From Bdellovibrionales bacterium (GTDB lineage Bacteria > Bdellovibrionota > Bdellovibrionia > Bdellovibrionales > JAGQZY01): a stretch of DNA of 64,000 nucleotides. A model generated the notes under the pieces. That model saw nothing but the letters and a program-made list of their open reading frames with translations, had not been told where the DNA came from and ran no database searches. Positions 28,760 to 46,057 of the stretch are shown in pieces. The translations under genes were made by a program, and so were the position numbers. The stretch covers positions 1-64,000 of the forward strand of contig CBDCNX010000023.1 in assembly GCA_965219545.1 (NCBI GenBank). The letters run 5' to 3'. Every line of letters starts with the position of its first letter. The first letter of the stretch is position 1.

Positions 28760-28784
28760 GACCGGATTCACATAAAGAATTTAA

Positions 28785-28818
28785 AAAACGCAAACCAAAC
28801 ACGGTTTGCGTTTTTTTA
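28785..28818 (+). terminator. Rho-independent terminator downstream of the acidic lipoprotein gene
   Basis: aacgcaaacc-aaacac-ggtttgcgtt stem-loop followed by T7. Confidence 0.65.
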
Positions 28819-28930
28819 TGGACAATCCGCTAGTGGTTTGTCCTAACAGTGAACCCCATAAAAAATCAAATACGATCACTACATCTAACCTCATCACTGA
28901 TTTCATTCCTATATATTTCTCTTTAAAAAA

Positions 28931-29002
28931 ATACTAAAAATCATTTATTTTTCATGCTATTTCCATAGAGAAATTCCATGAAAATTCAAACCGGATCAGT
29001 AT
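28931..29002. repeat. partial TATACTGA-family element (arm plus tail type 2) at the 3' end of the VWA lipoprotein array
   Basis: atactaaaaatcatttatttttcatgctatttccatagagaaattccatgaaaattcaaaccggatcagtata is the reverse complement of the right part of copy C (44155-44291). Confidence 0.65.
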
Positions 29003-29010
29003 AAAATCCC

Positions 29011-30105: not shown

Positions 30106-30188
30106 TTGTTTATATATTTGTTTATACAAAAGACCCACTCTTTCTTTCAATTTGTTGTCATACTAACCAATGACTCGTAATAAATATA

Positions 30189-31271
30189 TTAAAGCTCAGA
30201 GACATAAAGCCATTCATATTTAACATTAAATTCTCCCCCCACCCGGTCTAAATGAATATTCCTGGATAAACGAATAGCATTATTTTCCATATCATAGGTC
30301 CACCCATCAGGTCCCATTGGAATCACCTGACTTCCCCCTTTGTAATTATAACGAACCTCCAAAGTATCCAGATCAGGTAAATCATCAAGAGGGATCGTCG
30401 ATGCCGAATCAACCAGATGAGCGGCAAATTCAGAAAGACTTTTCCCATAATTAAACCGACAGAGATTAAACCAGTAACCACGGGGGCCGGAGAACTCCAC
30501 CATCTTCATAATTTTAGACGGGAAACGGGGCGGCTCTCTACTGCATTTATATCCCGGGACCTCAAAGGCGATAATCCCCGCAGCATAGTGAATTTTCCTT
30601 TCATCGCCTTTCTTAAGGTTTAATAAAAAATCATAGGCTCTGTACGGACTGGCACCACTGTGATCAAAGGCATCCGTTATAACAAAAACAGCCAAATGAG
30701 CCCAGGAACGGTAGAAAGAGGAATTTTCAGCTTTTGAAAAAACCAGGGATGGAATATCAATAAAGTGTTCCGAATCATCACCTGTAACTCCTACATCCAT
30801 CATTTCACTGAGACACTCCTCTACTCCGGGAGTGTTCCTGTCCACATAATTGGAGTAATTGTATTTTTTTTCTTCAGCCAGACCATCACACCTGACCAAT
30901 TGGCCTCCATAAGAAGTCTCATAAAGTTTTTTTTCGAGTTCCTCTTTATCCATATGACTCCCATCAGAATCTTTGGTTAACGAGGAATTGGTGACAGCAA
31001 TGTGATAATCAACAAATTCCACATCCAGAAACTCATCAATAAACAAACTGGCATTTTTTGCCAAAAGTTTCTGAATGGGTCTCATACTTCCTGTATTGTC
31101 AATAATAAACAGAATATCAACAGCCGGATTGTAATGACTTGTAGCAACTTTGTTGACAACCTTGGGGCCAAAACGGGATTTTTTTGGAATGGATTTCTGA
31201 CAACCTGTCAAATAAAAACAGTAAAGAAAAAGAACAACTATTCTGAGTTTTTTAAAAAAATCTTTTTTCAC
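30189..31271 (-). CDS. VWA-domain lipoprotein, CglB-like adhesin family, paralog 2
   Basis: MKKDFFKKLRIVVLFLYCFYLTGCQ lipoprotein signal; VDILFIIDNTGSMRPIQKLLAKNASLFIDEFLDVEFVDYHIAVT; C-terminal GPDGWTYDMENNAIRLSRNIHL. Confidence 0.6.
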   Translation of the reverse strand: MKKDFFKKLRIVVLFLYCFYLTGCQKSIPKKSRFGPKVVNKVATSHYNPAVDILFIIDNTGSMRPIQKLLAKNASLFIDEFLDVEFVDYHIAVTNSSLTKDSDGSHMDKEELEKKLYETSYGGQLVRCDGLAEEKKYNYSNYVDRNTPGVEECLSEMMDVGVTGDDSEHFIDIPSLVFSKAENSSFYRSWAHLAVFVITDAFDHSGASPYRAYDFLLNLKKGDERKIHYAAGIIAFEVPGYKCSREPPRFPSKIMKMVEFSGPRGYWFNLCRFNYGKSLSEFAAHLVDSASTIPLDDLPDLDTLEVRYNYKGGSQVIPMGPDGWTYDMENNAIRLSRNIHLDRVGGEFNVKYEWLYVSEL

Positions 31272-31324
31272 TGTTTCTCCACTTTTCCAGTCAATTACGA
31301 ACTTTTCACAAAGAACCTGATTGA

Positions 31325-32485
31325 TTAAAAGGCAATTCCCTGATCAGGCTCAAAAGTGTAAATGGATTTATATTTAACATTGAATTTTCCCCCTGCCTGG
31401 CTCAAATGAATATCCCTGGATAAACGAATGGCATTGTTTTCCATATCATAGGTCCAGCCCTCAGAACCCTTTGGAACCACCTGACTTCCCCCTTTGTAAT
31501 TATAACGAATCTCCAGAGTATTCATATCAGGTAAATCATCAAGAGGGATGGTCAATACCGAATCAACCAGACGAGCGGCAAATTCAGCGAGATGTTTTCC
31601 ATAATTAAACCGACAGAGATTAAACCAGTAACCACGGGGACCGGAGAACTCCACCATCTTCATAATTTTGTGAGGGAAATAACGGGAGTCAGGAACACTA
31701 TCTCCATCCCTAACACTCTCTCTATCTCTATCACATTCATATCCCAGAGCTTCAAAGGCGACAATCCCCGCAGCGTAGTGAATTTTTCTTTCATCGCCTC
31801 TTTTAAGATTTGATAAAAAATCATAGGCTCTGTACGAACTGACAGAACTGTGATCAGAGGCATCCGTTATAACAAAGATGGCCAAATGGGCCCCTGGGCG
31901 GTAAAAAGAGGAATTTTCACCCTGAATCATTTCCTTTGAAAAAACCAGGGGTGGAATATTAAGAAAATATTCGGAATCCTGACCTGTAATTCCAACATTT
32001 ATCATTTCACTGAGACACTTCTCTGCTTCAGGAGTGTTCCTGTCCACATAATTGGAATGATTGTATTTCATGTTTTCAGCCAGTTTATCACATCTTTTTA
32101 AACGACCTCCGTAAACAGACCTCTCAAGCTGTTCAAGTGCATCTTCATGTAAATAGCTCCCCTGAACTTTAGGAAAGTAGTCTCTTCTTAATGAAGAACT
32201 GGTGACAGCAATATGGTAATCAACAAATTCCACATCCAGAAACTCATCAATAAACAAACTGGCATTTTTTGCCAAAAGTTTCTGAACAGGTCTCATACTC
32301 GGTGAATTATCAATAATAAACAGAACATCCAAATCGGGATTGTAATGACTTGTAACAAACTCGTTGACAACCTTCTGTTCTAAACGGGGTTTTCTTTTCG
32401 GAATGGACTCCTGACAACCTGTCAAATAAAAACAGTAAAGAAAAAGAACAACTGTTCTGGGTTTTTTAAAAAAATCTTTTTTCAC
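31325..32485 (-). CDS. VWA-domain lipoprotein, CglB-like adhesin family, paralog 3
   Basis: 5' end nearly identical to paralog 2 (MKKDFFKKPRTVVLFLYCFYLTGCQ); LDVLFIIDNSPSMRPVQKLLAKNASLFIDEFLDVEFVDYHIAVT; extra acidic insert (DRDRESVRDGDSVPDSR). Confidence 0.6.
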   Translation of the reverse strand: MKKDFFKKPRTVVLFLYCFYLTGCQESIPKRKPRLEQKVVNEFVTSHYNPDLDVLFIIDNSPSMRPVQKLLAKNASLFIDEFLDVEFVDYHIAVTSSSLRRDYFPKVQGSYLHEDALEQLERSVYGGRLKRCDKLAENMKYNHSNYVDRNTPEAEKCLSEMINVGITGQDSEYFLNIPPLVFSKEMIQGENSSFYRPGAHLAIFVITDASDHSSVSSYRAYDFLSNLKRGDERKIHYAAGIVAFEALGYECDRDRESVRDGDSVPDSRYFPHKIMKMVEFSGPRGYWFNLCRFNYGKHLAEFAARLVDSVLTIPLDDLPDMNTLEIRYNYKGGSQVVPKGSEGWTYDMENNAIRLSRDIHLSQAGGKFNVKYKSIYTFEPDQGIAF

Positions 32486-32517
32486 TGTTTTTCAAACACT
32501 CCTGTCTTTCCAATCAA

Positions 32518-33594
32518 TTAAAAAGCAACTCTCTGATCAGATTCAAAGGTGTAAAAATGTTCATATTTAACATTGAATTTTCCCCCTGCCCGGCTCAAAT
32601 GAATATCCCTGGATAAATGAATAACATTGTTTTCCACATTGTAAGTCCAGCCCTCAGAACCCCTTGGAATCACCTGACTTCCCCCTTTGTACTTATAACG
32701 AACCTCTATGGTGTCCAGATCAGGCCAATAATCAAGGGAAATTGTCGATACTGAATCCACCAGGTGACTGGCAAATTCAGCAAGATTTTTCCCATAATTA
32801 AACTGACAGAGATTAAACAGATAACCACGGGGACCGAGAAGCTCCACCATTCCCATAAGTTTTGGAGGAAACCCATACCCTGGTTCTCTTTCGCAACGAT
32901 ATTGATGCAACTCAATGACAACAGAACCAAGAGCATAATGAAGCTTTTTTTCATCCCCTTTTTTAAGGGCTTTTAAAAAAGTATAGGACTCTTTAGGTGT
33001 AAACTCACTGTTATCATCCGAGTCTGTTATGGCAAAAACAGCCAAATGAGCCTCCGGGCGATAAAATTTTGAATTCTCTTTTCTATACTCCGACTGTAAA
33101 GACAAAGCCATATCAGGAATAACAAGAAACTGTTCTTCCAAATTGCCCCGAACCCCAACCTTCACCATCTCTTTAAAACATTCCACCGCTTCAGGAGTGT
33201 TTCTGTCCACATAATTGGGATAATTATAATTGTTTTTTTCTGCCAGTTTCTCACAGGAATGTAACTCTCCATTATAGGCGACACTATTGCTATTATAATC
33301 CTCCACTGACGAAGTGGTCACAGCAATACGGTAATCAACAAATTTCACACCCAGAAACTGATTAATAAACACTTCAGCATTTTTTGCCAGAAGATCCTGC
33401 TCAGTCTTCATACTGTCTGAGTCATCAATAATAAAAAGAATATCAACAGCCGAATTGTAATTGGTTGTGACAAACCTGTTAACCACCTGTTTTTTCTGAA
33501 GAGTGTATTTTTTCTTTGGAGAACCGGAAGGGCAACCCATTAGGGTAAGAAAACAGAAAAAGACAGCAAAGGCTTTTATACCTGCTTTATCCAT
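32518..33594 (-). CDS. VWA-domain lipoprotein, CglB-like adhesin family, paralog 4
   Basis: Lipobox FLTLMGC; VDILFIIDDSDSMKTEQDLLAKNAEVFINQFLGVKFVDYRIAVT; C-terminal GSEGWTYNVENNVIHLSRDIHL. Confidence 0.6.
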   Translation of the reverse strand: MDKAGIKAFAVFFCFLTLMGCPSGSPKKKYTLQKKQVVNRFVTTNYNSAVDILFIIDDSDSMKTEQDLLAKNAEVFINQFLGVKFVDYRIAVTTSSVEDYNSNSVAYNGELHSCEKLAEKNNYNYPNYVDRNTPEAVECFKEMVKVGVRGNLEEQFLVIPDMALSLQSEYRKENSKFYRPEAHLAVFAITDSDDNSEFTPKESYTFLKALKKGDEKKLHYALGSVVIELHQYRCEREPGYGFPPKLMGMVELLGPRGYLFNLCQFNYGKNLAEFASHLVDSVSTISLDYWPDLDTIEVRYKYKGGSQVIPRGSEGWTYNVENNVIHLSRDIHLSRAGGKFNVKYEHFYTFESDQRVAF

Positions 33595-33743
33595 TGTTTT
33601 CCTGAATCTTTTGTCCTGAAAAACCCATGTTAGTGGTTTGTCCTATAAATTTTTTCACATCTTCGACGCAGGAGTTTTTGACTCTATTCAATGCACAACG
33701 ACAAAGGACTGGCTGGAAGCCAATTCGATGAGGAGCAAGAGGT

Positions 33744-35333
33744 TCACAAGGTTCCTTTTGAACCGCAGCCTCTTTTAACACTGACCTGGTATCTGGACAA
33801 CTCATCATACCATCTTTCCCCTTTGTGAATAAAACTCACTGTGTGTTTCCCCCTGACTCCTGTTGTCCCCTTTTTAACCACAGTTTTTTTGGATTTTTCT
33901 CCGTTATCAGATCTTTTTTCCGCCAAAGAAATCTGTTGAATAAGTTCCGCTTCCACAATTTGCATCCTTTTAAGAGTTTTGGATATCTCCATAATTTCCC
34001 GGCCTGAAAGAGTTTTCACCCGCTCCAGAGCCTCAGAGTAACCCTTACGGTTACGGGCAATGATTTTATTTTTGAATTTCCCCATTTCAGTCTGAAAGCC
34101 TTTTGTCATAACTCCCTGATTCAGAAATTGGGAGTAAAGTTTTTCCGCCACTTCCGCTTCCCGCTCCAACTGATTCTGTCTCTGTAACAAAAAGTAAAGA
34201 CCTTCATCATGGGCAATATGACGTGGAAGTTTTCCGGCAAAAACACCAAGATCAAGATTACTGATTCGCCTTTCAGTCAATTGACTGAAAAGATTTTTAA
34301 CAGCCGGTGTTTCCGGTTGTTTTTTTAAATCCAAAAGCCCTTTGGCTTTAGCCCTAAAACGATTCTTGAATTCCCTGATGGTTTTTAAAACACCCTGATA
34401 GTCACATATTTTAAGGCTGGCAAGACTGGCAAGATAAAAGGCCCCCGGCCCCACATCCGGTCCAAAATCAGGATTTAAAAGAGTCTGTGTATAGGCTAAA
34501 GAATTCTGGGGATGACCCAGTCGCAATTCAGCCCACCCCATCTCCTCAAGAGCTTCAAACCAATAATCCGAACCTTTTTTCACTTTTTTATAATAACGGA
34601 TACTCTCTGTCAGATAAGCATTCTGATAAAGCATTCTGGCCGCTGTCAGATTCATCAGATCCATGGAAACGGGGTTGTTCTCAGTGATCCCCTGCAAATA
34701 TTTTAAAAGTTTTGCCGCCTTGATATCTTCATTGTTCATCAATAGAGTTGCTATATAACGCCACTGACCCCAGTGACGCTCCCAACTGCCGGAAGATGTT
34801 TTTCTCAGCAATTCTTCAAATTCAGTTAAAGTGTATTCCCTGTCGAACTGACGGACCATAATCCTGACTTTAGCTGGTAAACCAAAAATACTGACCCAAT
34901 CATCAGACCATTGAATATTGGTGACCGTCCATATTTTTAAATTAAGTTGCATAAGGGATTGCCAAAGACGAATAAGAAGGGAATCCATTTTTCCGGGATT
35001 TCCGGAGAATAAAATATCAAGACCCGCCAGAGGCAAACCATTTTTAAACAACAGATAACCATAGAGGGCCCGACCGTTATCACTTTCAGAAAATGAAGTT
35101 TTACCAAAAGCCTGAGGCCATTGATAAAAAGCCCTTTTCATTTTACCCTGACCCATGAGCCGAAAAAAATCCTCCTGATGTTTTGTTGGATGTTTTATCA
35201 GTTTCCTCAGAGCCTGGGTTCTTTTTGCAATATTCAGGTCTTTTGAAGTCTCTTTTGAATCCAGAATATTAAACAGGTCATCAGCAAAAACAGGCTGAAC
35301 AAACAAAAAGATTACAAAAAAATAACGGAACAT
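33744..35333 (-). CDS. secreted TPR-like/helical-repeat protein (GltC/GltE-like candidate)
   Basis: Signal peptide at the internal Met (MFRYFFVIFLFVQPVFA) directly after the stop of the beta-barrel gene; all-alpha repeat character; cluster context. Confidence 0.4.
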   Translation of the reverse strand: MFRYFFVIFLFVQPVFADDLFNILDSKETSKDLNIAKRTQALRKLIKHPTKHQEDFFRLMGQGKMKRAFYQWPQAFGKTSFSESDNGRALYGYLLFKNGLPLAGLDILFSGNPGKMDSLLIRLWQSLMQLNLKIWTVTNIQWSDDWVSIFGLPAKVRIMVRQFDREYTLTEFEELLRKTSSGSWERHWGQWRYIATLLMNNEDIKAAKLLKYLQGITENNPVSMDLMNLTAARMLYQNAYLTESIRYYKKVKKGSDYWFEALEEMGWAELRLGHPQNSLAYTQTLLNPDFGPDVGPGAFYLASLASLKICDYQGVLKTIREFKNRFRAKAKGLLDLKKQPETPAVKNLFSQLTERRISNLDLGVFAGKLPRHIAHDEGLYFLLQRQNQLEREAEVAEKLYSQFLNQGVMTKGFQTEMGKFKNKIIARNRKGYSEALERVKTLSGREIMEISKTLKRMQIVEAELIQQISLAEKRSDNGEKSKKTVVKKGTTGVRGKHTVSFIHKGERWYDELSRYQVSVKRGCGSKGTL

Positions 35334-35340
35334 ATCTTCC

Positions 35341-36018
35341 TTAAAATAAATATCCAAAATTAAAACTGGCCAAAGTGGTTTGCATTTCAACGGGACCCGT
35401 AAAACGCTGAGCCTTATAAAAACGTTGACGCACTTCCAGGCGGGCACTCAAATGTTGTGATATCCATAAACCAAGTCCTCCACCTATAATTAACAGGCCC
35501 GTTTCACCGGACGTTAAACCAATGCGTCCATAACCACCAATAAGGTACATATCAAAGTGAACAATCCCCATGTCAAACATATTGATTTTTCCATAAATGG
35601 GAGCAAAATTCCCAATCAGTTCATAACCGGAATCCGGTTGGTCCACATCGGGAACCAGTTCCTCGTTATGAATCAAAAAATAACCTTCCTGGCTGAGCTT
35701 GTTGTAAGCGTTAAAATAACTTAAACCGACAGACCAACGGGGATTAAAATGAAAATAATAATTGAAAAGGAGCATCTGGGTTTGAAGATAGACATCCCCG
35801 CCAATAATGTTCCCATAACCCAGAGAGATTTCACTGCGTTTGTTAAGATCCACAATTCGATCCTGTACAACCTTTATCCGCTTGTCCGGTTGTAACAGCC
35901 TGGCCCGATTAATAAGAACATCATTACCCCCCAGGGAATCAAAATCCTTCATGATCTCAGCGTGAATTAAAGGGGTAAAAAACATCAAAAAAACAAAAAT
36001 AATATTTCTCATAATCAC
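35341..36018 (-). CDS. outer-membrane beta-barrel protein (GltA/GltB/GltH-like candidate)
   Basis: 225 aa; signal peptide; alternating amphipathic strands with many G/Y; C-terminal ...FNFGYLF aromatic beta-signal. Confidence 0.45.
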   Translation of the reverse strand: MIMRNIIFVFLMFFTPLIHAEIMKDFDSLGGNDVLINRARLLQPDKRIKVVQDRIVDLNKRSEISLGYGNIIGGDVYLQTQMLLFNYYFHFNPRWSVGLSYFNAYNKLSQEGYFLIHNEELVPDVDQPDSGYELIGNFAPIYGKINMFDMGIVHFDMYLIGGYGRIGLTSGETGLLIIGGGLGLWISQHLSARLEVRQRFYKAQRFTGPVEMQTTLASFNFGYLF

Positions 36019-36029
36019 CGAAATCCTCC

Positions 36030-37481
36030 TTACTGTATCATGGGTTCTACTACTGTTCCAGTATCCACCGGTTCATTGGGAGTATGTACAGGAGGACCTA
36101 CTGAACCACCTGACTCACCACCTGCTGCCGAAGTCTCTGTTACACCCGAAGGATTATCTCCCCCTGGCTTGCCATCCGGCGAACCTGTCTTATAAGGTAA
36201 AGGCTGAAAGTTTACCCGACCCATACCCATGTCATCCAACTCTTTAGGACATACCGGAGTTTTCGCAGCATCATCATTGTCATCCACGACATGGACTCTG
36301 AAGCTTTCATCAACGCTGGTTTCATGGATCAATTCCCCATTTTCCCCCTCACCAAAAATCCGACCCGTTTTATGGACCTTCACTTCAAATTCCCCTGTCT
36401 CCCCGGGTTTCCATCGAAGGGTGCAACTGGACTGAGAATCATCCCTTTGTTGACAGGGGCAAGTGGATCCCTGTGGAGAAATACAACTGGCTGACACCTT
36501 TGATAACCTGGACCTGTCAATCACAAGAAATGTGTGACTGTTCCATCCTCCCTTGGAAAAATTGACAACAGCTTCACCAACAAATTCAGGCTCCGGGGCC
36601 TCTTTTAAAGAAACAAGGAACTGCTTTGGAAAAGTTGCCGAAGGAATCCCGTATATGGAATAGGCCACAAAACCCGCATCGTACCGGTTGTAAACATTCA
36701 TTATTGAAAGCTTTATTCCCTCCGGCAATGTCAGATTGGCCTCAAATTCCCATATATCCAGGCCATTCTCTGTTGTGTTGTCATAACAGTCACAATTTTT
36801 AAGAATTTCATGATCCTTAAAACCGTTAGTGGGATTCGTGGAATTAGTCACATTAATGTATTTGTTTGCCCCGTCACTACTATAAACCTGAAGACGGGGA
36901 GGCTGCTCAGTGCTTCCATGGACATAAACCTTAAATTCATGTCGTTCTCCGGGGGAGGCCCCTTCCGGAAAGCCGACAACTTTTAACACTTGAGGCAAAA
37001 CACCCCTGCCTACCAGTTTTGGAACGATCATAATATTGATCTTTGCAATGGACTCAAGAATAACCCCCTGATATTCCGCAAACAGAGAAATTTCCAAAAC
37101 CTGCAACTTGTAGCCGTTTGAACTGATATCCACGGTTTCCGCCGGAGGGGTTATGGAAATAATTCCCGCCTCCCTCTCATAAACAAGACCGGGAAAATCA
37201 TTAGCACTCTGAACAACAATCTCCTGAAACTTCACCTCGGGGTGACCAATAGTGTACTTAATGGGTATATTGAGAGTGTCTTCTTCCTGAACACTGTAAA
37301 CCGGCTCAAAATTCATAAAAATAACATCCTTGTCAGGAGGCGGAATTTTCTTCTTTCGTTCGTTAAAGGGAACGGCATTTTTCACGCTTTCACTTTCATC
37401 TTCAAAGGCATCCTTTTTCCAGCCATCAGAACAGGAGGACAGACCCAGTAGAAGAAGAAACAACAACAAACCCTTTCCCAT
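36030..37481 (-). CDS. secreted lipoprotein with predicted beta-sandwich (Ig-like) repeats and G/P-rich C-terminus
   Basis: Lipobox LGLSSCSDG; beta-rich; Cys pairs; C-terminal proline/glycine-rich tail. Start at the internal Met (ORF extends to 37526). Confidence 0.4.
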   Translation of the reverse strand: MGKGLLLFLLLLGLSSCSDGWKKDAFEDESESVKNAVPFNERKKKIPPPDKDVIFMNFEPVYSVQEEDTLNIPIKYTIGHPEVKFQEIVVQSANDFPGLVYEREAGIISITPPAETVDISSNGYKLQVLEISLFAEYQGVILESIAKINIMIVPKLVGRGVLPQVLKVVGFPEGASPGERHEFKVYVHGSTEQPPRLQVYSSDGANKYINVTNSTNPTNGFKDHEILKNCDCYDNTTENGLDIWEFEANLTLPEGIKLSIMNVYNRYDAGFVAYSIYGIPSATFPKQFLVSLKEAPEPEFVGEAVVNFSKGGWNSHTFLVIDRSRLSKVSASCISPQGSTCPCQQRDDSQSSCTLRWKPGETGEFEVKVHKTGRIFGEGENGELIHETSVDESFRVHVVDDNDDAAKTPVCPKELDDMGMGRVNFQPLPYKTGSPDGKPGGDNPSGVTETSAAGGESGGSVGPPVHTPNEPVDTGTVVEPMIQ

Positions 37482-37661
37482 AAAAACTCCTTTGAAAATA
37501 CAGACCGATTCCGTTTTGAATTTCATATTGATTTCCCCGGAAAATTCACGGAATTCAAAATGGAATGAATCCTACACAATGTTACCAATGAACCCCCCCA
37601 TGAAGTGAAACTCTAGTACAGAATTACTATATCTTTAAACACTTTTCAATCATCCCTTTTT

Positions 37662-38822
37662 TCATTTTTTTAATGAAGCACTCAGCCTTTTTAAATGAAA
37701 AGGGTAAGAAACTTTTACTTCCCGACTGTTTCTTGGAATTGGAAACTTCCAGGTACGCAATTTCCTTAACATACAATTCTCCACAAACTTATTATTAAGA
37801 GAGGTCTTCCTTATTTTGGCAATCGGTACACGACCGTTAGCGTCAATAATCCAGAAAATGGACACCCGACCGGAGAGAGACGCATTGAGTTGCAGGCCCT
37901 GTTCATAACAAAAACGAATTTGCCCAAGATTACGATGAACCACTTTGGCAATAAGACGGCTATCAAGACCACCACCGACAGAAGACTCATGAACTATGGG
38001 AGTCAGGGAGGCCCCTGAAGATCCCACCAGAGAAAGAGAACCAAAACCCGCTTTACCTCCTCCTTTGCCTTTGGTTCCATAACCTCCACCTCCTTTAATA
38101 TGACCTCCGGAACCAAGAGGGGCCGCCACCAAACCCTTTCCATAAAGACTGGTTTGAACACCGCCACTTCCCTGGTGACCGCCAAAACCGGGACCTTCTG
38201 TCACTTTGACAGCTCCCAGGTCCAAACCTCCCCGCTGCCGACCTTTTTTCAACTGTCCCAGGGCGGCCAACAAGGCCCCTCTCCTCTTTGAAGAAGCTGA
38301 CTTTAAACGGGACTGGGACTGTTCCTGTGAGGAGTTTTGACCGAGAACCAAAGTCTGACGGGAACTGGATCGGGGGAGGACCAGCTTTTTACGCACAATT
38401 TTAACAATTTCCTGCTTTTTTTCCTCTTTGATTTCTTTTGGAATTTCATCAGGAACCAAAACATGACTCAATAAAAACCCAATAAAAAGATAAGCAAAAA
38501 TTGAAAAAAGAATGGTCTTTCGGCCCCTGAAAGATTCAGAAATTGGTTTTCTTTGAATAACAGGGGAAATCTCCTCACTTTTAACAAGTTCGAGATGACC
38601 AAAATCCCCCACTTGCAAGGGCCTGTTTAAAAGTTGATCCCCCGAAGCCCGGGCCAGTATTTCAAAAGGTACTTTTTCTTTCCTCAAACGATCCAGGGAG
38701 ATCATAACTTCAAGTCTTTTTGTATCCTTACGGAACAGGACCCACAGGGTTTCAGGCTTCCGCCAGGGATAAACCCTGAGAACATTGCCTTTTTTGTTAT
38801 GTAAAACCAGATGTTTTATCAT
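37662..38822 (-). CDS. AgmX/PglI (GltG)-type protein with a TonB-C-like C-terminal domain
   Basis: Cytoplasmic N-domain, single TM (ILFSIFAYLFIGFLL), K/E-rich linker, Gly-rich segment, then VVHRNLGQIRFCYEQGLQLNASLSGRVSIFWIIDANGRV...FVENCMLRKLRTWKFPIPRNSREVKVSYPF. This closely matches the AgmX/PglI C-terminal domain. Confidence 0.7.
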   Translation of the reverse strand: MIKHLVLHNKKGNVLRVYPWRKPETLWVLFRKDTKRLEVMISLDRLRKEKVPFEILARASGDQLLNRPLQVGDFGHLELVKSEEISPVIQRKPISESFRGRKTILFSIFAYLFIGFLLSHVLVPDEIPKEIKEEKKQEIVKIVRKKLVLPRSSSRQTLVLGQNSSQEQSQSRLKSASSKRRGALLAALGQLKKGRQRGGLDLGAVKVTEGPGFGGHQGSGGVQTSLYGKGLVAAPLGSGGHIKGGGGYGTKGKGGGKAGFGSLSLVGSSGASLTPIVHESSVGGGLDSRLIAKVVHRNLGQIRFCYEQGLQLNASLSGRVSIFWIIDANGRVPIAKIRKTSLNNKFVENCMLRKLRTWKFPIPRNSREVKVSYPFHLKRLSASLKK

Positions 38823-38834
38823 AATAACAGGTTT

Positions 38835-39098
38835 TTAATTCCTCACTGACGACATTTTTATACGATCCTTAAAGTCCTTGGGAATTTCCAGAAGAGTATC
38901 AAGGACCCTGTCCTGTTTAACTGTCTCCACAGGCTCCTCAGAAAAATGATGTTTTCCCTGAACAAGAATCTCATCAAAAGAAATTTCCTGTTCATTTTTT
39001 ATGACATTTTTCTCAGGCTCCTCTTTAGGAGACGAAAAAACAGACAGACTCCCGATAGTAACAGCCAAAAATAATACGATTCGATAATTCATAATCAC
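38835..39098 (-). CDS. small secreted protein (GltF-like candidate)
   Basis: 87 aa with signal peptide; position between the TPR and AgmX-like genes mirrors gltF. Confidence 0.35.
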   Translation of the reverse strand: MIMNYRIVLFLAVTIGSLSVFSSPKEEPEKNVIKNEQEISFDEILVQGKHHFSEEPVETVKQDRVLDTLLEIPKDFKDRIKMSSVRN

Positions 39099-39158
39099 CC
39101 CTTTTTATACGTTCAGGTTTTTACAAAGTCACAAAAACAAATGGTCTTCATTATAAAT

Positions 39159-42100
39159 TTAATCCATTTTTTCCAAACGATTACTTAAATAAATAATCAT
39201 GGGTTGATATCCCCGAATGGTTTCCAATTCAACAAGTTTTTTAAGAGCTTTCTTATCCATGGGGGTCTTTCTGACCTGCTCTCTGGCCGCTTCCAGTGAG
39301 GAGACAGAAGACAATTGGCGTTTCCCGTTCTGACGATAAACCAGGTTTAAAAGACCCGATGATGATTTCACAGAACCTAATTTTTCAATCTGGGGGCCTA
39401 AAAGAGCCTGAACCCCCAGGCTGCTTTTATGAAAATCAGCATAAAGACGATCCTGGGAGTTCTGATCTTTCCAGAGTTCATCAATCTTTAACTGAATCCG
39501 ATCCGCTTTCAGTTTATAAGGAGTCACCTGTTCGCTGAGTAACGTCATAAACTCCTGTTTTTCTTTTTCACCTAAATCCCCGGAAACAGGCAAAGCCATC
39601 AGGTCTTCATAAAAACGAGTGTATTGGGTTTTCAGATGATCCAAAAAAACAACCTGAACAAGCCAGTCCTCGGTTTTGGTGGCATCACCGATAACCCTTT
39701 CAAAACGATTTATGAGATTCAACCTCTGCTGAATGGAGCGGGCCAAACGACCAATCCCAAGTTTATGTCTTTCAAGTTTTTTAAGCCATGTTTCACCCCG
39801 CTTAAGCAGGAGACCACGGGAAACAACTGAAGCCAGCCATGTTTTTTCAAGCCCGTGGGTTTTAAGTCGATTGAAAAGAGGGGACAGGGGTCCCTTCCCG
39901 CCATAAGTGTCAATAATGAGACTTGCAAAAACCTCCCTGTCTTTTTTTAAGTGAGAAACACAGGACTGATACGGTCCTTTTAAAGTCCCGCTCTTTTCAA
40001 CCAGCTTAAAACAAATGGAAAAGGCCAGTTTTGGATCCTGTGTCGTCTTCAAATACTTAAAATAATACTTCTCTGAGGGTTTCTCAGCCAGATCCGCAAG
40101 ATGAGCCAGCCTGAGCCAATCATCCATCTCTAACTTTTTATAGGAAAGATAGGCATCATTGAAATCCAACTGTGTCTCATCAAGCCAGACTTTATTCTCC
40201 AGAGCAAAACGACGCTCCTTATCTGTAATGTTATCGAGAGCAAGAAAAGCCTGAAGGGATTCCTCCATTTCACGAAACTTATTCAACTGACGGGATAAAA
40301 TAATTTTGTTTTCATAGTAGGTTTTTACTTTCCCGGGATCAGCGTAAGACACATCAAAACGGCTGAGAACAGTCCAGGCCTTTTCATGATCTGAAGACAA
40401 TCGGGCCGCCTGGGACAGAACGGCCTGACCCACCAGTCCCAGAAAATGTTTTTTTTGATCGGGAAAACTTTTGGCAAACTCCCTGCCCCAGGTTTCAATG
40501 GTTGAATCATCTTTTGTAAACACCAGGCAGTCCAGGGCCATTTCAGCAGACTGAAGTTTCAGTTTGGATGAAGCCGATGGATATTTTGCCAATTTTTGAA
40601 ATTTACCGGCAGCCACTTCGTAATTTTTGTTTTCATAGTGAACCTGAGCTATTTGATAGCGAACTTCCGATAATTTGGATCTTTCCACACTTTTTTCCAG
40701 ATAAAGATTTTGGGAAGCTGTCAACCATTGGGGATTTTTGGCTTTTTCGGCAATTTCAATTCCCCGAAGCAAAAGAGATTCAAGGACTTTATTATCCCGT
40801 GTTAAAGACATCGCTTTCCCATTCCAATGATAAGCCCTTGAAAAATCCTCCGCCAGAAGGGCCGTCTGCGAGGCCAGTTTAAAAGCTTCAGCATCTTTGG
40901 AATCCACTTCAAAATAAGCTTCATAAGCCATGATTAACTCTTTGGAAGGGGTTTTCTTCTCATCGCGATTCCAGTCAAAAACAATATTCCGCAATCGCAT
41001 TTTCAGTTCCCCGGACTGAACCTGTTCAGTGGATTGGATCCCCTGGAGTTTGCCTGATTGGAACTTCTTTAAACTTTTTTCAGTTTTTGACTCAGCCAGA
41101 AGCAGAGATTTCCATTGACTCAAAGCTCTTTGAAAGTAAGAAAAAAGTTTCTCTTTCCCACCTGTCCTGAAACTGAGACTGGCCAGGTTTATTAAAGCAT
41201 CAATACGAACCTGAAGCTGATCCGCTTTTTCCACAACCAGTTTCCAGGCCTGTTCAGATTGTTGAATTTGCCCCAAACGCTCCAACTCCCTTGCCAGAAA
41301 TGAAACATTCAAAATCTGATTTTCCCCGTCGGGGCTCAGTTCAAAGACCTTCCCGATGGCCTGAAGATCCACCTGCTGATTATGGGCCATAAAAACCGTA
41401 TAATCCCTGGCAATTTCAGCCTTGAAATCCTCATCCACACCGGAAAGGATTTCCCTGTTACGGGTGAGGAGTTCCGGAGTTTTTAACATTTTCTCAAGAC
41501 CGGAAACAGCCCCCAAAACATCCCCCGTATTATAAAGACACCAGGCCAGACGAAAACCGGCCAGTCCCCTTCTTTTAAAAGAATCTTCAGCAAGGGTCCT
41601 CTGATAATGGCTTCCGGCCTTCCGAAAATCCCTCTGTTTAAAGTAAATTTCAGCCAAAGAGAATTCAGCTTCCGCTTTCAGAAGACCCCGACTTCCATCC
41701 ACAACCTTTCTGTAAAGGTCAATGGCTTTGGAGTTTTGACCCACCAACTCATGAAGATGACCCACCTGTATTAAAACAATCTGAAGCTGATTCGAGTCCA
41801 AATGGGGCAGAACATAATGATAATACATGAGAGCTTGTTTCCTATCCTCCTGTCCACCGGTGCATTCAATACAACCTTTTTCCAACTCTTTTTTAGCCTG
41901 TAAACGACCTCTCTCAGCATGGAGATCGGCAAGCCTCAAACCCACTTTCACCCTGTCCGGACTGTTTTCAGGCAAACCTGAAAAAATCCCTTTTAATTTA
42001 CCAATCAACAGATCCTGTGTCTGGATACGGGTCTGGTTTCCGGGCACAGCCCTTGCCCGTTGGGAAAACACAATAAGAACCAACACAATCAGCAATCCGG

Positions 42101-42167
42101 AAAAAAAGATCAATTTTCCCAGGCGGGAGATAAAAAACAAATTCAAACAATTTCCAGTATTTTTCAT
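39159..42167 (-). CDS. large secreted TPR-repeat protein (GltD/AgmU-like candidate)
   Basis: 1002 aa; signal/TM at N-terminus; many TPR-like helical pairs (AxxxYxxA/LxxxG patterns) throughout. Confidence 0.55.
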   Translation of the reverse strand: MKNTGNCLNLFFISRLGKLIFFSGLLIVLVLIVFSQRARAVPGNQTRIQTQDLLIGKLKGIFSGLPENSPDRVKVGLRLADLHAERGRLQAKKELEKGCIECTGGQEDRKQALMYYHYVLPHLDSNQLQIVLIQVGHLHELVGQNSKAIDLYRKVVDGSRGLLKAEAEFSLAEIYFKQRDFRKAGSHYQRTLAEDSFKRRGLAGFRLAWCLYNTGDVLGAVSGLEKMLKTPELLTRNREILSGVDEDFKAEIARDYTVFMAHNQQVDLQAIGKVFELSPDGENQILNVSFLARELERLGQIQQSEQAWKLVVEKADQLQVRIDALINLASLSFRTGGKEKLFSYFQRALSQWKSLLLAESKTEKSLKKFQSGKLQGIQSTEQVQSGELKMRLRNIVFDWNRDEKKTPSKELIMAYEAYFEVDSKDAEAFKLASQTALLAEDFSRAYHWNGKAMSLTRDNKVLESLLLRGIEIAEKAKNPQWLTASQNLYLEKSVERSKLSEVRYQIAQVHYENKNYEVAAGKFQKLAKYPSASSKLKLQSAEMALDCLVFTKDDSTIETWGREFAKSFPDQKKHFLGLVGQAVLSQAARLSSDHEKAWTVLSRFDVSYADPGKVKTYYENKIILSRQLNKFREMEESLQAFLALDNITDKERRFALENKVWLDETQLDFNDAYLSYKKLEMDDWLRLAHLADLAEKPSEKYYFKYLKTTQDPKLAFSICFKLVEKSGTLKGPYQSCVSHLKKDREVFASLIIDTYGGKGPLSPLFNRLKTHGLEKTWLASVVSRGLLLKRGETWLKKLERHKLGIGRLARSIQQRLNLINRFERVIGDATKTEDWLVQVVFLDHLKTQYTRFYEDLMALPVSGDLGEKEKQEFMTLLSEQVTPYKLKADRIQLKIDELWKDQNSQDRLYADFHKSSLGVQALLGPQIEKLGSVKSSSGLLNLVYRQNGKRQLSSVSSLEAAREQVRKTPMDKKALKKLVELETIRGYQPMIIYLSNRLEKMD

Positions 42168-42178
42168 AAAAATCCTTC

Positions 42179-42649
42179 TTACTTTCTAACCACCGCAAAA
42201 TTGATATCACTGTAACCGGCATGGCTTCCCGCCTGAATCACATGACTGAGAAGATCATAGGTCTGACGACGATCAGCCTGAATGGTCATGGCTCCACTGA
42301 ATTCCGTTCCCGGATAATATTTTTCCCAATTTTTTTTTAACTTTACAAGTTTTTCAACAAGACTGTTGACAGACACTTCCTCTTCTTCAATGTACAACTT
42401 TTCTTTTTCAACTTTCACCACCACATTGCGTTCAAGACCCACGACCTCACTGGCTGATGGCAGTTCCATACCTTTACCAACATAAAGAAGTTCGCCTGTG
42501 GTTGAAAAAGTCACCAAAAGATAAATCACAAGAACAGAAAAGTATCCACAAGAGATGTCAGCATAATTGTGGCCACAAGATTTTTTCTGACTTTGGCTCT
42601 GGATATGGATTTTAAATATCTCTGTGAAACCTGATAAAACACAATCCAA
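42179..42649 (-). CDS. ExbD/TolR family protein (second copy; AglS-like)
   Basis: 156 aa; single TM (YFSVLVIYLLVTF) then a periplasmic domain ending ...TYDLLSHVIQAGSHAGYSDINFAV, resembling the ExbD C-terminus. Confidence 0.5.
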   Translation of the reverse strand: MDCVLSGFTEIFKIHIQSQSQKKSCGHNYADISCGYFSVLVIYLLVTFSTTGELLYVGKGMELPSASEVVGLERNVVVKVEKEKLYIEEEEVSVNSLVEKLVKLKKNWEKYYPGTEFSGAMTIQADRRQTYDLLSHVIQAGSHAGYSDINFAVVRK

Positions 42650-42667
42650 ACTCCTTTTACGTTATGA

Positions 42668-43135
42668 TTAAATAGGTGTCACTCCCAGATCTTCGATCCC
42701 ACTCTGCCTGAAAACATCCATCAACCTGATAATGTCCTCAAACCTGGTTACTTTTGAAGGGCGAATAAGAGCCATGGACAACTGATCAAAATCCCCGGTG
42801 AGCTTTGTCAGATAATCACTCAACCTTTCATAATCAGGTCGCCCTTCCCTCCCCTTAATTTCCCGGTTTTTATAAACACTCAGAATCTTTTTTGGACTGT
42901 TACGCAACTGAATCTTCAAACCTCCTTCAGGTTCAAACAAAACCCACATTTCCGGTTTTGGTTTCAAACCTTCCGCAGCCTGACCGCCAATGGCCTGCTT
43001 GACATTCATTGAGGCAATCTGAACCCACACAGTGGTTAACAGCAAAAAACAAATACAAACAGACAAAAGAGAGATAAAAGCCACCAGATCAATTTCCGTA
43101 TTCATGGACTTTTTTGTTTTCCTCTCTCCAAACAT
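42668..43135 (-). CDS. ExbD/TolR family protein (AglQ-like)
   Basis: 155 aa; N-terminal EIDLVAFISLLSVCICFLLL (TolR/ExbD TM motif) plus a periplasmic domain. Confidence 0.65.
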   Translation of the reverse strand: MFGERKTKKSMNTEIDLVAFISLLSVCICFLLLTTVWVQIASMNVKQAIGGQAAEGLKPKPEMWVLFEPEGGLKIQLRNSPKKILSVYKNREIKGREGRPDYERLSDYLTKLTGDFDQLSMALIRPSKVTRFEDIIRLMDVFRQSGIEDLGVTPI

Positions 43136-43152
43136 ATTTTTCCTCTTTCCCC

Positions 43153-43830
43153 CTAAAACTCTGAAGAGGGACGGTTGTGAAACTCAAGGGGATTGAATGA
43201 ATGACTCAACCAATTGTAAACCTTAAGAGCCGCCTGATTCAGATCGTCAGTAAGGGCCTGAGAGCGGTTGGTCAGAATAGCGTAAACAAGAAGCGTGGGA
43301 ATAGCCACAATCAAACCAAAAGCCGTTGTATTCATGGCCTCGGAAACACCATTGGAAAGAAGAGTGGCTTTTTCCACAGGGCTGGCATTACTGACAGCGG
43401 CAAAGGCCTTGATCATTCCCGTAATGGTTCCCAAGAGTCCCGCCAGAGTGGCCACGTTGGCAATCATGGCGAGAAAGGCTGTTCTCTTTTCAATTTCCTC
43501 TGTTTCCTCCAGGATAACCTCCTCCATGCGACCGTGGATTTCATCTTTGCCGCCCATGTTCATGGCCACTTCGGTGCCTGCTGCCACCGTCCTGTAAATA
43601 GACAGACTCTCATTTTCCTGACTGGCTTTCAATACAGAATCCAGTTTTCCCTGACGAATTCCCTTTTCAAAAACAAGAACTTTGATTTTTTGCTCCGGCT
43701 TTCTTTTAATATAAAGGGCAATAATCCTTTCAATGGTGATAACAACCCCAAGGACAAACAAACCCAGTATGAACCACATACAGATTCCACCACTGTTAAA
43801 CTTTTCCGACAGTGAACCCAAAAAATCCAT
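43153..43830 (-). CDS. MotA/TolQ/ExbB proton-channel protein (AglR-like)
   Basis: 225 aa, three TMs; LAGLLGTITGMIKAF and AFGLIVAIPTLLVY motifs typical of TolQ/ExbB. Confidence 0.8.
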   Translation of the reverse strand: MDFLGSLSEKFNSGGICMWFILGLFVLGVVITIERIIALYIKRKPEQKIKVLVFEKGIRQGKLDSVLKASQENESLSIYRTVAAGTEVAMNMGGKDEIHGRMEEVILEETEEIEKRTAFLAMIANVATLAGLLGTITGMIKAFAAVSNASPVEKATLLSNGVSEAMNTTAFGLIVAIPTLLVYAILTNRSQALTDDLNQAALKVYNWLSHSFNPLEFHNRPSSEF

Positions 43831-44154
43831 GGCACTCCTCTTTTTTAAAATTCACACCTTCAAAAAATCCAGATGAGAATTACAAGGCAATATTATGAAC
43901 CCATTCTTTAATGATAACAGAAACAACAGGAAAAGCGTAAAAATTTCTTTTCTTAATTGCAAGAAAAAGATTGGAAAATATTTTAAATCATAAAATCTTT
44001 GTCATTGGATAAAATAATGTAATGAATAATGTACTAAATAATGATAAAAACACTTTTTGAAAACCGTAATTCTTCATCTGTTTTGATAAAAATTTGGAAG
44101 ACCGCAGGAAAATCTGAAAAAAATTTGCTTTAAAAAAAAACTTGTGAAAAAAAT

Positions 44155-44291
44155 TATACTGATCGTGTTTGAGTTTTCATGGAATTTCCCTGAGAGATCA
44201 TTTATTCTATGCTGAATTTCTTTAGCCAAAATCCGCTTAAAACAAGTGGTCTCTATGAAAATAGCATGAAAAATAAATGATCTTTAGTATA
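44155..44291. repeat. full-length TATACTGA...TCAGTATA element (copy C, inverted orientation, carries both tail modules)
   Basis: tatactgatcgtgtttgagttttcatggaatttccctgagagatcatttattctatgctgaatttctttagccaaaatccgcttaaaacaagtggtctctatgaaaatagcatgaaaaataaatgatctttagtata. Confidence 0.8.
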
Positions 44292-44296
44292 AGTTA

Positions 44297-44482
44297 ATGA
44301 AATGCGGAAATGACATTCGTACATCACATAACATAATTTGTCACATAATTTTTTCCTTAAATGTAGCAAACAGTCACAACCCGTCCGTCGATATCCTTTT
44401 TGTTATTGACAATTCAGGGAGTATAAAAGATATCCAAAACATAAAAGTTTTTTGTGTCTCTGATGTTATTTGCTTTTACTGA
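44297..44482 (+). pseudogene. relic 5' fragment of a VWA lipoprotein of the same family as the 29-33.6 kb array
   Basis: Translation ...NPSVDILFVIDNSGSIKDIQNIK... reproduces the family's MIDAS-containing block (VDILFIIDNSxSM), but the ORF is only 61 aa and lacks the rest of the gene. Confidence 0.5.
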
Positions 44483-44515
44483 AAAATTTTTCTGCCAATT
44501 TTATAGGCATAAACC

Positions 44516-46057
44516 ATGAAAAATATTCATTCCTATAAATGGCCCCTGTTGTCAGGTTTTTTGATCGGTACAAGTTATATCCCCTTTTTCCCCTGGGCCC
44601 TGTTTTTTTGCCTCATACCTCTCTGGTTTTTCTGGCTTAAAGAAGTCTCTTTAAAAAAAATCTTTCTGGGGGGCTGGATCACCCAGTTTGTCCTCAATCT
44701 CATTGGTTTTTACTGGATTACCCACACCGTTGTGGAATTCGGTCATCTGCCTTTTTTTGTGGGCGTGGGAGTTCTTCTCCTCTTTTGTGCTTTTAGTCAT
44801 CTCTATTATCCACTGGCTGGAGTTTTTTGGAAATGGCTCTCCGGCAAACTCAATCTGAGCCAAACAGCCTCTCTTATTCTCCTGCCTTTCATTTTCGTAC
44901 TTTGCGAAAGACTCTATCCTTTTATTTTTTACTGGCATCTGGGTTATCCCTGGTTGTTTGCAAAGTTTCCGGGTTTTCACACAGCCCAGTGGATCGGTTT
45001 TTTTGGACTCAATATTATAACACTTTTAATCAACAGCTTTTTATGCCTGGCATTGATCTCCAGAAAAAAAAGGAACAGAAGTCTGGGCTTTGGAGTCCTG
45101 GCTCTGGGTGTCCTGATCCTAATCAACGGAATTGGATTTATAATTTCCAAAAATATTAAAAAGCCCGATCAGTCTTTTCGGGTGCTGGCTGTCCAGGGAA
45201 ATATCGGAAATTTTGAAAAAGTTCAGGCGAAAGTGGGGTGGCGTTATGTGGACAGTATCACCCAAACCCATATCCATCTGACTCTCCGGGGATTTGAGCA
45301 ATCAGAAAACAAGGACATAGACCTTGTCATCTGGCCTGAAACCGCCATTCCCGCAACCATCACAGAGGATTCCACAGATCCCCACTACGAAAAAGTGGCC
45401 GGATTATCCATGAAACTGAACACACCTTTTCTCATTGGAGCCTTTGAGGAAAAAAATAAAAAAATCTTCAACTCACTGATTCTTACAGATGGAATGAACA
45501 CTTTGGGTTCCTATCAAAAAACCAGACTTCTCGCCTTTGGGGAATACCTGCCTTTTAGTAAATACTTTCCCAAATTAAAAGATCTGCTCCCCATGGTTTC
45601 TGACCTCACCCACGGAACAGGTCCCTCCGTCCTGAAACATCCAAAAGCACTTATTGGAACCCAGATCTGTTATGAGGGTCTTTTTGACGAATTTTCAACC
45701 CAACTTCAAAAAAAGAAGGCCCTGATTTTTATCAATGTCACCAACGATTCCTGGTTCGGGCAAACCTCTGAACCTTATCAGCATATGTATATGACAATGG
45801 CCCGGGCCATTGAAAACAGAAGACCTCTGATACGGGTGACAAACACCGGCATATCCACTGTGATCCTCAGTGACGGTAAAATACTGGAACAATCACCACT
45901 CAATGAGGAATGGGTTAAAGTTTTTGATGTTCCCTATCATTCCACACCCCCCTTCACCTTTTACATGAAACTTTCCGAAAACTGGATATGGATTCTTCTT
46001 TTGCTCATTGGATCCATAATTCTTGGAGATCGACTTGCGGGAACCAATAAACATTGA
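44516..46057 (+). CDS. lnt: apolipoprotein N-acyltransferase
   Basis: 513 aa; N-terminal polytopic membrane domain plus a C-terminal nitrilase-like domain (LVIWPETA..., ICYEGLF..., NDSWFG). Confidence 0.8.
   Translation: MKNIHSYKWPLLSGFLIGTSYIPFFPWALFFCLIPLWFFWLKEVSLKKIFLGGWITQFVLNLIGFYWITHTVVEFGHLPFFVGVGVLLLFCAFSHLYYPLAGVFWKWLSGKLNLSQTASLILLPFIFVLCERLYPFIFYWHLGYPWLFAKFPGFHTAQWIGFFGLNIITLLINSFLCLALISRKKRNRSLGFGVLALGVLILINGIGFIISKNIKKPDQSFRVLAVQGNIGNFEKVQAKVGWRYVDSITQTHIHLTLRGFEQSENKDIDLVIWPETAIPATITEDSTDPHYEKVAGLSMKLNTPFLIGAFEEKNKKIFNSLILTDGMNTLGSYQKTRLLAFGEYLPFSKYFPKLKDLLPMVSDLTHGTGPSVLKHPKALIGTQICYEGLFDEFSTQLQKKKALIFINVTNDSWFGQTSEPYQHMYMTMARAIENRRPLIRVTNTGISTVILSDGKILEQSPLNEEWVKVFDVPYHSTPPFTFYMKLSENWIWILLLLIGSIILGDRLAGTNKH

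Follow-up and report, generated by a model that had tools for sequence, protein, structure and literature searches.

In a 64-kb window of contig CBDCNX010000023.1, which is the whole stretch of DNA analysed here, an uncultured Bdellovibrionales bacterium (GC content ~40%) very likely carries an operon for an Agl/Glt-type envelope-spanning machine, the counterpart of bd2368–bd2377 in Bdellovibrio bacteriovorus HD100. The locus is no new kind of system but a further copy of the known Bdellovibrio-type cluster. As predicted from gene spacing and flanking signals, the transcription unit is ~15 kb long and consists of 13 minus-strand genes, four of which encode lipoproteins with a von Willebrand factor A (VWA) domain. 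All coordinates are positions within this window, and only these 64 kb of the genome were visible. An earlier note on the same DNA had placed nine minus-strand genes at 33744–43830, and all nine were found at these positions when the open reading frames (ORFs) were checked.

The window ORFs were scanned with Pfam and NCBIfam/TIGRFAM profile models, each with its own bit cutoff. A GltG-like putative force transducer of 386 aa (37662–38822) scored 97.8 bits against NF033768, the AgmX/PglI C-terminal domain (cutoff 40), and remained below both tonB_Cterm (17.2 versus 27.1 bits) and Pfam TonB_C (12.9 versus 24.6 bits). Its architecture was as previously described, with a cytoplasmic N-domain of ~100 aa, a transmembrane (TM) segment at residues 104–122, a Gly-rich linker and the AgmX/PglI domain at residues 286–378. 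No FHA domain was recognisable in the N-terminus when 20 family members were scanned, in contrast to Myxococcus xanthus GltG, which has FHA domains and its TM segment at residues 330–348 (PMC11761067). The outer-membrane beta-barrel noticed earlier for its FNFGYLF end (223 aa; 35341–36012) terminates in SFNFGYLF and matched TIGR04565 (OMP_myx_plus) with 82.2 bits against a cutoff of 60, as a GltA/GltB-type barrel; at the same position in HD100, Bd2370 (235 aa) was mapped to GltB, MXAN_2539 (PMC3169522). The second of the secreted TPR-like proteins resembles GltC, as a periplasmic helical/TPR-like protein of 529 aa with a signal peptide (33744–35333), whose residues 263–562 aligned with positions 325–620 of the 622-position NF033756 gliding_GltC profile (E = 5.8e-14).

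Two further periplasmic components complete this part of the operon. The small secreted protein, listed with 87 aa and counted here as 85–87 aa (38835–39092), has the expected signal peptide and a strongly conserved C-terminal region of ~50 aa, and the window copy is 32–64% identical to its orthologues. In a family-level count for which no curated cutoff was displayed, NCBIfam NF033764 gliding_CglF (= GltF) was matched by 25 of 26 orthologues, with a best E of 2e-6, and gave no match to the window copy itself. The secreted TPR protein of 1002 aa (39159–42167) was likewise borne out, with an N-terminal hydrophobic signal/anchor and matches to TPR_2 (34.7 bits) and TPR_1; in 75 loci it is conserved from end to end. 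It occupies the GltD/AgmU position, and the GltD assignment of that position comes from the mapping of Bd2374 (996 aa) to MXAN_4870 (PMC3169522).

The motor genes head the operon. The MotA/TolQ/ExbB homologue claimed at 43153–43830 matched Pfam MotA_ExbB with 91.5 bits (cutoff 22.9); it is an AglR-like inner-membrane channel subunit of the TolQ/ExbB/MotA family, 225 aa long with three TM-like segments. It did not reach the equivalog cutoffs of tolQ (73 versus 221 bits) or exbB (59.5 versus 206 bits), is as distant from ExbB of solved structure (42 bits) as from TolQ (39 bits), and is 48–91% identical to the first gene of ~65 syntenic loci. The two consecutive ExbD/TolR homologues, AglQ-like (155 aa; 42668–43135) and AglS-like (154 aa once a frameshift is repaired; 42179–42642), scored 37.4 and 46.9 bits against Pfam ExbD (cutoff 25.4), so the pair described in the earlier note stands, while its second ORF as listed is a frameshift artefact. 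Both ExbD-like proteins remained below the tolR (14–24 versus 127 bits) and exbD equivalog cutoffs, and PDB searches with either as a single sequence returned no match. They represent distinct families, ExbD1 and ExbD2, each conserved across 67–68 loci.

With regard to a possible grouping with TonB, Tol-Pal or ExbBD that lacks Glt partners, the outcome therefore favours Agl/Glt, since NF033768 passed and tonB_Cterm failed, and the GltC-like protein, the OMP_myx_plus barrel and the CglF/GltF-like protein lie in the same operon. The likeness to the M. xanthus Agl-Glt system covers a TolQ-like subunit with two different TolR-like subunits, a single-pass AgmX/PglI transducer, a large periplasmic TPR protein, the small GltF/CglF-like protein, the GltC-like protein, the OMP_myx_plus barrel and a VWA lipoprotein adhesin, and the window order lipoprotein–barrel–GltC mirrors M. 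xanthus gltK-gltB-gltA-gltC. In contrast to M. xanthus, in which these genes (aglRQS; gltD-J; gltK-B-A-C; cglB) are distributed over three or more loci and three barrels (GltA/B/H) are encoded, the window has a single operon and one barrel.

More than 900 homologues of the GltG-like protein were retrieved. Among these, the best 120 match over the full length with 42–75% identity, except for one 100% identical database twin, and come from genomes or metagenome-assembled genomes (MAGs) of Bdellovibrionales, Bdellovibrionaceae and Pseudobdellovibrionaceae. We mapped all 13 window proteins onto each of 80 species-level Bdellovibrionales loci, and in essentially all loci with enough flank the same order was conserved: AglR, ExbD1, ExbD2, ~1000-aa TPR protein, small protein, GltG, lipoprotein, barrel, GltC and VWA. 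At one of these loci, that of B. bacteriovorus Bd16 (L067), the proteins are 246/152/155/992/82/376/384/235/534/339 aa long. The published HD100 values are 531 aa for Bd2369 (GltC), 235 for Bd2370 (GltB), 376 for Bd2372 (GltG), 996 for Bd2374 (GltD), 175 for Bd2375 (AglS), 151 for Bd2376 (AglQ) and 244 for Bd2377 (AglR) (Luciano 2011, PMC3169522 Table S3). The Bd16 lengths fit Bd2369–2377 and not the other HD100 clusters (Bd0413–0420, Bd0828–0838 and Bd1474–1481), and through this locus the window proteins agree closely in length with the HD100-type cluster for 8 of 10 proteins. When the Bd16 proteins were looked up in protein clusters, the names obtained were all from B. reynosensis, with no HD100 locus tags among them, and we therefore infer the orthology with bd2368–bd2377 from gene order and protein lengths. 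A complete Bdellovibrio-type cluster was also found on a contig labelled 'MAG: Streptomyces griseus' (locus L025; CALQIT020000024.1), a label that is presumably a binning or labelling error.

The shared order with bd2368–2377 runs AglR, AglQ, AglS, ~1000-aa GltD-like, small protein, 376–386-aa GltG-like, lipoprotein, 225–235-aa GltB-like, ~530-aa GltC-like and VWA, and the PGAP names are alike (AgmX/PglI C-terminal domain protein, vWA domain protein, hypothetical). In contrast, the window proteins are only 30–52% identical to the copies of Bdellovibrio sensu stricto; the window has four VWA genes and the bd2368–2377-type locus one; the window lipoprotein has 483 aa as opposed to ~384 aa and is barely alignable; and the window differs in its ExbD-like proteins, with Ser at the canonical Asp and an Asp six residues upstream in the AglQ-like subunit and an AglS-like gene that is frameshifted in the assembly. 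The compact layout of ~10 kb that the earlier note had singled out was confirmed, although it is not new, being the standard Bdellovibrionales arrangement already published for HD100 (PMC2797640; PMC3169522; PMC12546842), with the VWA gene, the lipoprotein (Bd2371) and the small protein (Bd2373) included. Bd2368–Bd2377 was named as an operon, one of four 'tonB-like/agl' operons (Lambert 2010, PMC2797640), corresponding to four 'expanded core complex' Agl/Glt clusters reported for HD100 (PMC3169522). A quantitative proteome of 2025 found the Bd2368–2375 and Bd2377 proteins more than 4-fold up at the exit phase, and its authors proposed that the Bd2368–2377 cluster powers escape from the prey remnant (PMC12546842).

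The membrane Asp of the two plug subunits was located by aligning the orthologue profiles with solved E. coli TolR and ExbD over the TM helix, whereby the ExbD1 profile segment 'feinlipfiDll' aligned to TolR SEINIVPLLDVL. In the AglQ-like ExbD1 of the window, Ser22 stands in the TolR-D23 column, Asp16 lies six residues upstream and Ala replaces the usual Pro. The canonical pattern N/P/D is found in 51 of 67 orthologues and the pattern D/A/S in 12 (the window, its close relatives, L077 and L080), while in three more Ser at the canonical position is paired with an acidic residue at −6, and one has Ser there but nothing acidic at −6. Altogether, Ser occupies the TolR-D23/ExbD-D25 position in 16 of the 67 (the window and loci L002–L009, L021, L077, L080, L043, L046, L073 and L033), accompanied by Asp or Glu at −6 in 15 of them and by the Pro-to-Ala exchange in 13. 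Ser at the canonical Asp of the first ExbD is a clade trait, and the acidic residue at −6 may be a relocated proton-binding residue. A conserved TM Asp in the second ExbD, proposed as a check, was present (LVD), although in another frame than the listed ORF; this canonical Asp is invariant in 68 of 68 AglS-like orthologues and aligns with D25 of E. coli ExbD. In M. xanthus, aglQ D28N abolished proton conductance and motility (PMC3858216). Taken together with the Ser pattern of ExbD1, this phenotype suggests that in this clade the canonical proton site is confined to the AglS-like subunit.

The outer-surface side of the operon is represented by the lipoproteins. Four paralogous VWA lipoproteins, 53–74% identical to each other and located at 29011–33594, directly follow the GltC-like gene. 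They carry a DxSxS metal-ion-dependent adhesion site (MIDAS) motif and are assigned as outer-membrane lipoproteins: paralogue 1 (358 aa; 32518–33594) has the lipobox LMGC and conserved MIDAS residues D57-x-S59-x-S61 and T190/D191; paralogue 2 (386 aa; 31325–32485) has 57% identity with paralogue 1 and 74% with paralogue 3; paralogue 3 (360 aa; 30189–31271) has the variant MIDAS D-N-T-G-S instead of D-x-S-x-S; and paralogue 4 (29011–30150), listed with 379 aa, has an atypical lipobox, SPGC, and its start is probably internal. They differ most in an insertion-rich loop that follows the 'IAVTxSS' strand. Sequence matches were weak, to the VWA part of the CglD model and to the Bdellovibrio MIDAS-adhesin model NF052240 (25–42 bits against an equivalog cutoff of 700), and a PDB sequence search with paralogue 1 gave a chance match only. 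The AlphaFold2 model of paralogue 1 (mean predicted local distance difference test score, pLDDT, 87) comprises a VWA domain and a small C-terminal beta domain, and Foldseek matched it to the VWA domain of the SpaC pilus-tip adhesin and to integrin beta I-like domains (E ~1e-8). The modelled fold and these matches support a MIDAS adhesin and not CglB orthology. Of the adjoining 'CglB-like array' reported earlier, the four abutting VWA/MIDAS lipoproteins are therefore real, but the CglB label is an analogy, since the sequence matches are not to CglB, no CglB-model match was obtained, and the predicted architecture lacks the beta-propeller-like N-domain described for M. xanthus CglB (PMC11761067).

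With the Bdellovibrio MIDAS adhesins Bd0875 and Bd1483 (Caulton et al. 2024, PMC11003981) the window proteins share the lipobox and the VWA/MIDAS domain; Bd1483 is the last gene of a further agl/glt operon, Bd1473–1483 (PMC11003981; PMC2797640). Unlike Bd0875 and Bd1483, the window VWA genes are arranged as four tandem copies downstream of the GltC-like gene. A single VWA gene is present at most loci and two at a handful; L082 has three, L021 two or more and the window four, and contigs with up to four paralogues occur among the relatives. Four diverged paralogues suggest a broader range of substrata or ligands. A short hairpin, TTGGCAA[A/G]AAATGCCAG with a T-rich tail, recurs within VWA paralogues 2, 3 and 4 (32259–32275, 31048–31064 and 29885–29901, minus strand) and is most simply explained as conserved coding sequence of duplicated genes, not a terminator.

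The large lipoprotein was recovered with the lipobox LSSC (483 aa; 36030–37481) at the gltK position, upstream of the barrel. It is fast-evolving, with only six homologues found by word search, and where sequence similarity failed it was detected in relatives by an ORF scan: at 68 of 69 loci examined, the gene between GltG and the barrel encodes a lipoprotein of 378–493 aa whose N-terminus carries the conserved motif 'C..GW.QDP'. Its AlphaFold model (mean pLDDT 70, cores >80) predicts a disordered linker, three immunoglobulin (Ig)/cadherin-like beta-sandwich domains (~52–155, 160–290 and 295–400) and a disordered Gly/Pro-rich tail.

The predicted unit of ~15 kb and 13 genes is larger than the span considered in the earlier note, based on the short gaps between its genes, the one long intergenic region upstream and a terminator after the fourth VWA gene. 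The gaps are mostly 8–60 nt; the two widest precede the lipoprotein gene (~180 nt) and the first VWA gene (149 nt). Upstream of the AglR-like gene, and divergent from lnt, lies an AT-rich intergenic leader of 685 bp (43831–44515, minus strand), a putative promoter and 5' leader, and a good ribosome-binding site, GAGGAG, precedes the ATG at 43830. A promoter scan of the leader found sigma-70-like matches at 44180–44153 and 44005–43977 at a frequency no greater than in shuffled sequence. Rfam detected no family in the leader or elsewhere in the window, and a cyclic-dinucleotide riboswitch was rejected on this basis, at least for the described families. At the other end, ~195 nt past the last VWA gene, an intrinsic-terminator-like hairpin with a 15-bp stem and a T run (28816–28783, minus strand) was the top-ranked terminator-like site within 28000–44600 and is the probable operon end. 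Several listed starts are probably over-extended, and we moved that of the GltC-like gene from 35447 to 35333, of the lipoprotein from 37526 to 37481, of the small protein from 39098 to 39092 and of the barrel from 36018 to 36012; the lipoprotein start agrees with the public record P0121 (483 aa). Plus-strand ORFs antisense to the cluster, such as 43201–43815, were treated as shadow ORFs.

A working model for the machine can be drawn entirely by homology with the M. xanthus Agl-Glt model, in which a structural study assigns roles to GltG, D, F, C, A/B, K and CglB (PMC11761067), and with the HD100 operon expression data. The AglR-like protein would form an inner-membrane proton channel, in which the two ExbD/TolR-like proteins would sit as a heterodimeric plug. 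Proton flow via the conserved membrane Asp, the canonical one being present in this clade only in the AglS-like subunit, would be converted into conformational work and passed on to the single-pass GltG-like protein. The Gly-rich linker of the latter would cross the peptidoglycan, and its AgmX/PglI TonB-C-like domain would dock on the ~1000-aa GltD-like TPR pillar, which the GltF-like and GltC-like proteins would bridge to the GltA/B-type barrel. The barrel and the Ig-domain lipoprotein at the gltK position might then present the surface VWA/MIDAS adhesins, which would grip the substratum or the prey envelope. By analogy, the output of such a machine would most likely be slow surface gliding.

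Several observations weigh against the assignment as a gliding operon equivalent to bd2368–2377. The link to HD100 is drawn from gene order and protein lengths. Several model matches are partial or lacking: the C-terminal third of the GltG-like protein matched gliding_GltG with E = 3.4e-34 but only 118 bits against the equivalog cutoff of 650, the GltC-like match spans the C-terminal ~300 aa with 51.7 bits against a cutoff of 450, and the 1002-aa protein and its 25 orthologues matched generic TPR models (YbgF, Tgl, BamD) but none specific to GltD. Within the 64 kb scanned, none of the ORFs inside or outside the cluster matched GltE, GltH, GltI, GltJ, GltK or AglZ, which are M. xanthus-specific or cytoplasmic components, the sole GltJ-model match being the shared TonB-C-like tail of the GltG-like protein, and no other Glt, MglA or AglZ-type genes were seen in the window outside the cluster. 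The set is to this extent unlike that of M. xanthus, and the description 'near-complete' was overstated, also with regard to the missing FHA domain; GltH, I, J and K were reported absent from Bdellovibrio as well (PMC3169522). The protonatable TM Asp expected in the AglQ-like subunit from M. xanthus AglQ D28, an essential residue (PMC3858216), is not at its canonical position in the window ExbD1, and the AglS-like gene is broken as assembled. Finally, the Bdellovibrio gliding machinery is called 'unidentified' in a 2026 review (PMC13104615), and the M. xanthus Nfs system illustrates that Glt paralogues can have non-motility functions (PMC3858216).

The last point leads to the alternative that retains most weight, although we consider it rather unlikely: an Agl/Glt-type machine employed as a proton-driven surface conveyor for a job other than locomotion, such as the movement of a surface polymer or the handling of the prey envelope at entry or exit, with the VWA proteins as prey-binding adhesins. 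Nfs, built of Glt paralogues, uses the same motor in spore-coat assembly (PMC3858216), and a polysaccharide/O-antigen cluster is located near the operon (48.5–63.5 kb), but no polysaccharide export genes lie within the Agl/Glt operon itself. The four paralogous HD100 clusters differ in expression, with one peaking inside the bdelloplast and bd2368–2377 at exit (PMC12546842; PMC2797640); prey exit in B. bacteriovorus is, however, experimentally tied to gliding (PMC9140294). The MIDAS lipoprotein Bd0875 acts in prey invasion (PMC11003981), and the match of the window VWA proteins to its model is weak and far under the cutoff (42 versus 700 bits).

Under a second alternative, which we regard as improbable, the frameshift in the AglS-like gene would be real, the only subunit with a canonical Asp would be lost, and the motor would be dead in a decaying operon. 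The listed ExbD2 ORF owes its TTG start at 42649 to a −1 frameshift; the actual N-terminus, which contains the Asp, begins at a GTG at 42642 in another frame, which encodes ...NLVATIMLTSLVDTF and then a stop, while the listed frame continues FSVLVIYLL. The shift site, TTTT at 42538–42541, follows directly after the conserved Asp codon, and the AglQ-like partner has Ser at its canonical position. The corresponding sequence is TTTTT in L021 and CCTTTT in L082; the frame is kept in both, and both encode an intact ExbD2 of 154–155 aa. Other window genes are fragmentary as well, and in principle they could reflect genome decay. A single-base deletion within an A run at 47124–47147, part of a T7-A5-T5 stretch, breaks the mutS2 endonuclease gene (46023–48340, plus strand) into two ORFs that overlap. 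In rmlB, for dTDP-glucose 4,6-dehydratase (49451–50645, plus strand), at least three frames carry an N-terminal piece of 175 aa, a middle piece and a C-terminal piece of 129 aa, and the 231-aa minus-strand ORF over it (49968–50663) is probably a shadow ORF. Only partial ORFs, each covering part of the family profile, were found for tpiA (triose-phosphate isomerase; 613–1182), waaA (Kdo transferase; 1450–2529), cstA (21881–22549) and an asparaginase gene (23890–24402), which points to many assembly indels or to gene decay. Since at least six further genes are broken within the 64 kb, essential ones included, and both inspected indels lie in homopolymers, the ExbD2 frameshift is probably an assembly error: the two are single-base deletions (T5 to T4, and the A run) typical of long-read assembly, truncation of essential genes such as tpiA and waaA is implausible in a living cell, and the other 12 operon genes are unbroken and show good conservation. 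A programmed frameshift or phase variation at ExbD2 was rejected, as the run is only 4–5 T long and many unrelated window genes are broken too.

Lastly, TonB/Tol-like energy transduction for outer-membrane transport or envelope integrity is very improbable, for although a MotA_ExbB channel, an ExbD/TolR plug and a single-pass protein ending in a periplasmic TonB-C-like domain are the generic architecture of Tol-Pal and ExbB-ExbD-TonB, the best specific matches of the large TPR protein are to Tol-Pal YbgF/CpoB-type repeats, 17 of 20 GltG-like orthologues give weak TonB_C matches with the TonB C-terminal domain as the only relevant PDB match, and early literature left open 'discretely different TonB systems' (PMC2797640), every tolQ, exbB, tolR, exbD and tonB_Cterm cutoff failed where AgmX/PglI and OMP_myx_plus passed, profile scans found no TolA, TolB, Pal or TonB-dependent receptor gene in the operon, and the GltC- and GltF/CglF-like partners stand beside two different ExbD-like subunits, as in AglQ/AglS.

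For the Agl/Glt reading, the order of ten genes kept in ~80 Bdellovibrionales species supports counting both the lipoprotein and the VWA protein among the integral components of the gliding machine of Bdellovibrio. The set resembles a natural 'minimal' Agl/Glt complement, in which there is one barrel, GltG is short and GltE, H, I, J and K were not found, and could ease structural and reconstitution work. The variations of the clade, namely the moved acidic residue of the AglQ-like subunit and the adhesin genes in 2–4 copies, could serve as natural experiments on the use of the Asp in TolQR-like 5:2 motors and on the adhesin repertoire in relation to the range of substrata or prey. A more speculative and, in our judgement, doubtful proposal is that the machine has diverged in two ways, on the one side towards an asymmetric plug in which only the AglS-like subunit conducts protons at the canonical site, and on the other towards 2–4 VWA adhesins that, together with the hypervariable Ig lipoprotein, act as interchangeable 'tyres'. 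If this were true, one motor would be adapted to different substrata or prey surfaces.

The remainder of the window includes the housekeeping genes lnt, mutS2, RNase Y, ampG, yebC and a tail-specific protease gene. Beyond the operon terminator, three consecutive minus-strand ORFs at 24500–26923 (334, 174 and 286 aa) and a plus-strand ORF at 28061–28759 (232 aa) had no family match in the profile scans, save a weak TPR match of the 334-aa ORF. The polysaccharide/O-antigen-type cluster on the other side of the operon (48564–63514) encodes glycosyltransferases, rmlB/D/A/C, a 2-oxoglutarate (2OG)-Fe(II) oxygenase, a Wzm/Wzt ABC exporter and galE, together with two paralogous methyltransferases, a WsaF-like rhamnosyltransferase and a two-domain glycosyltransferase of 725 aa.

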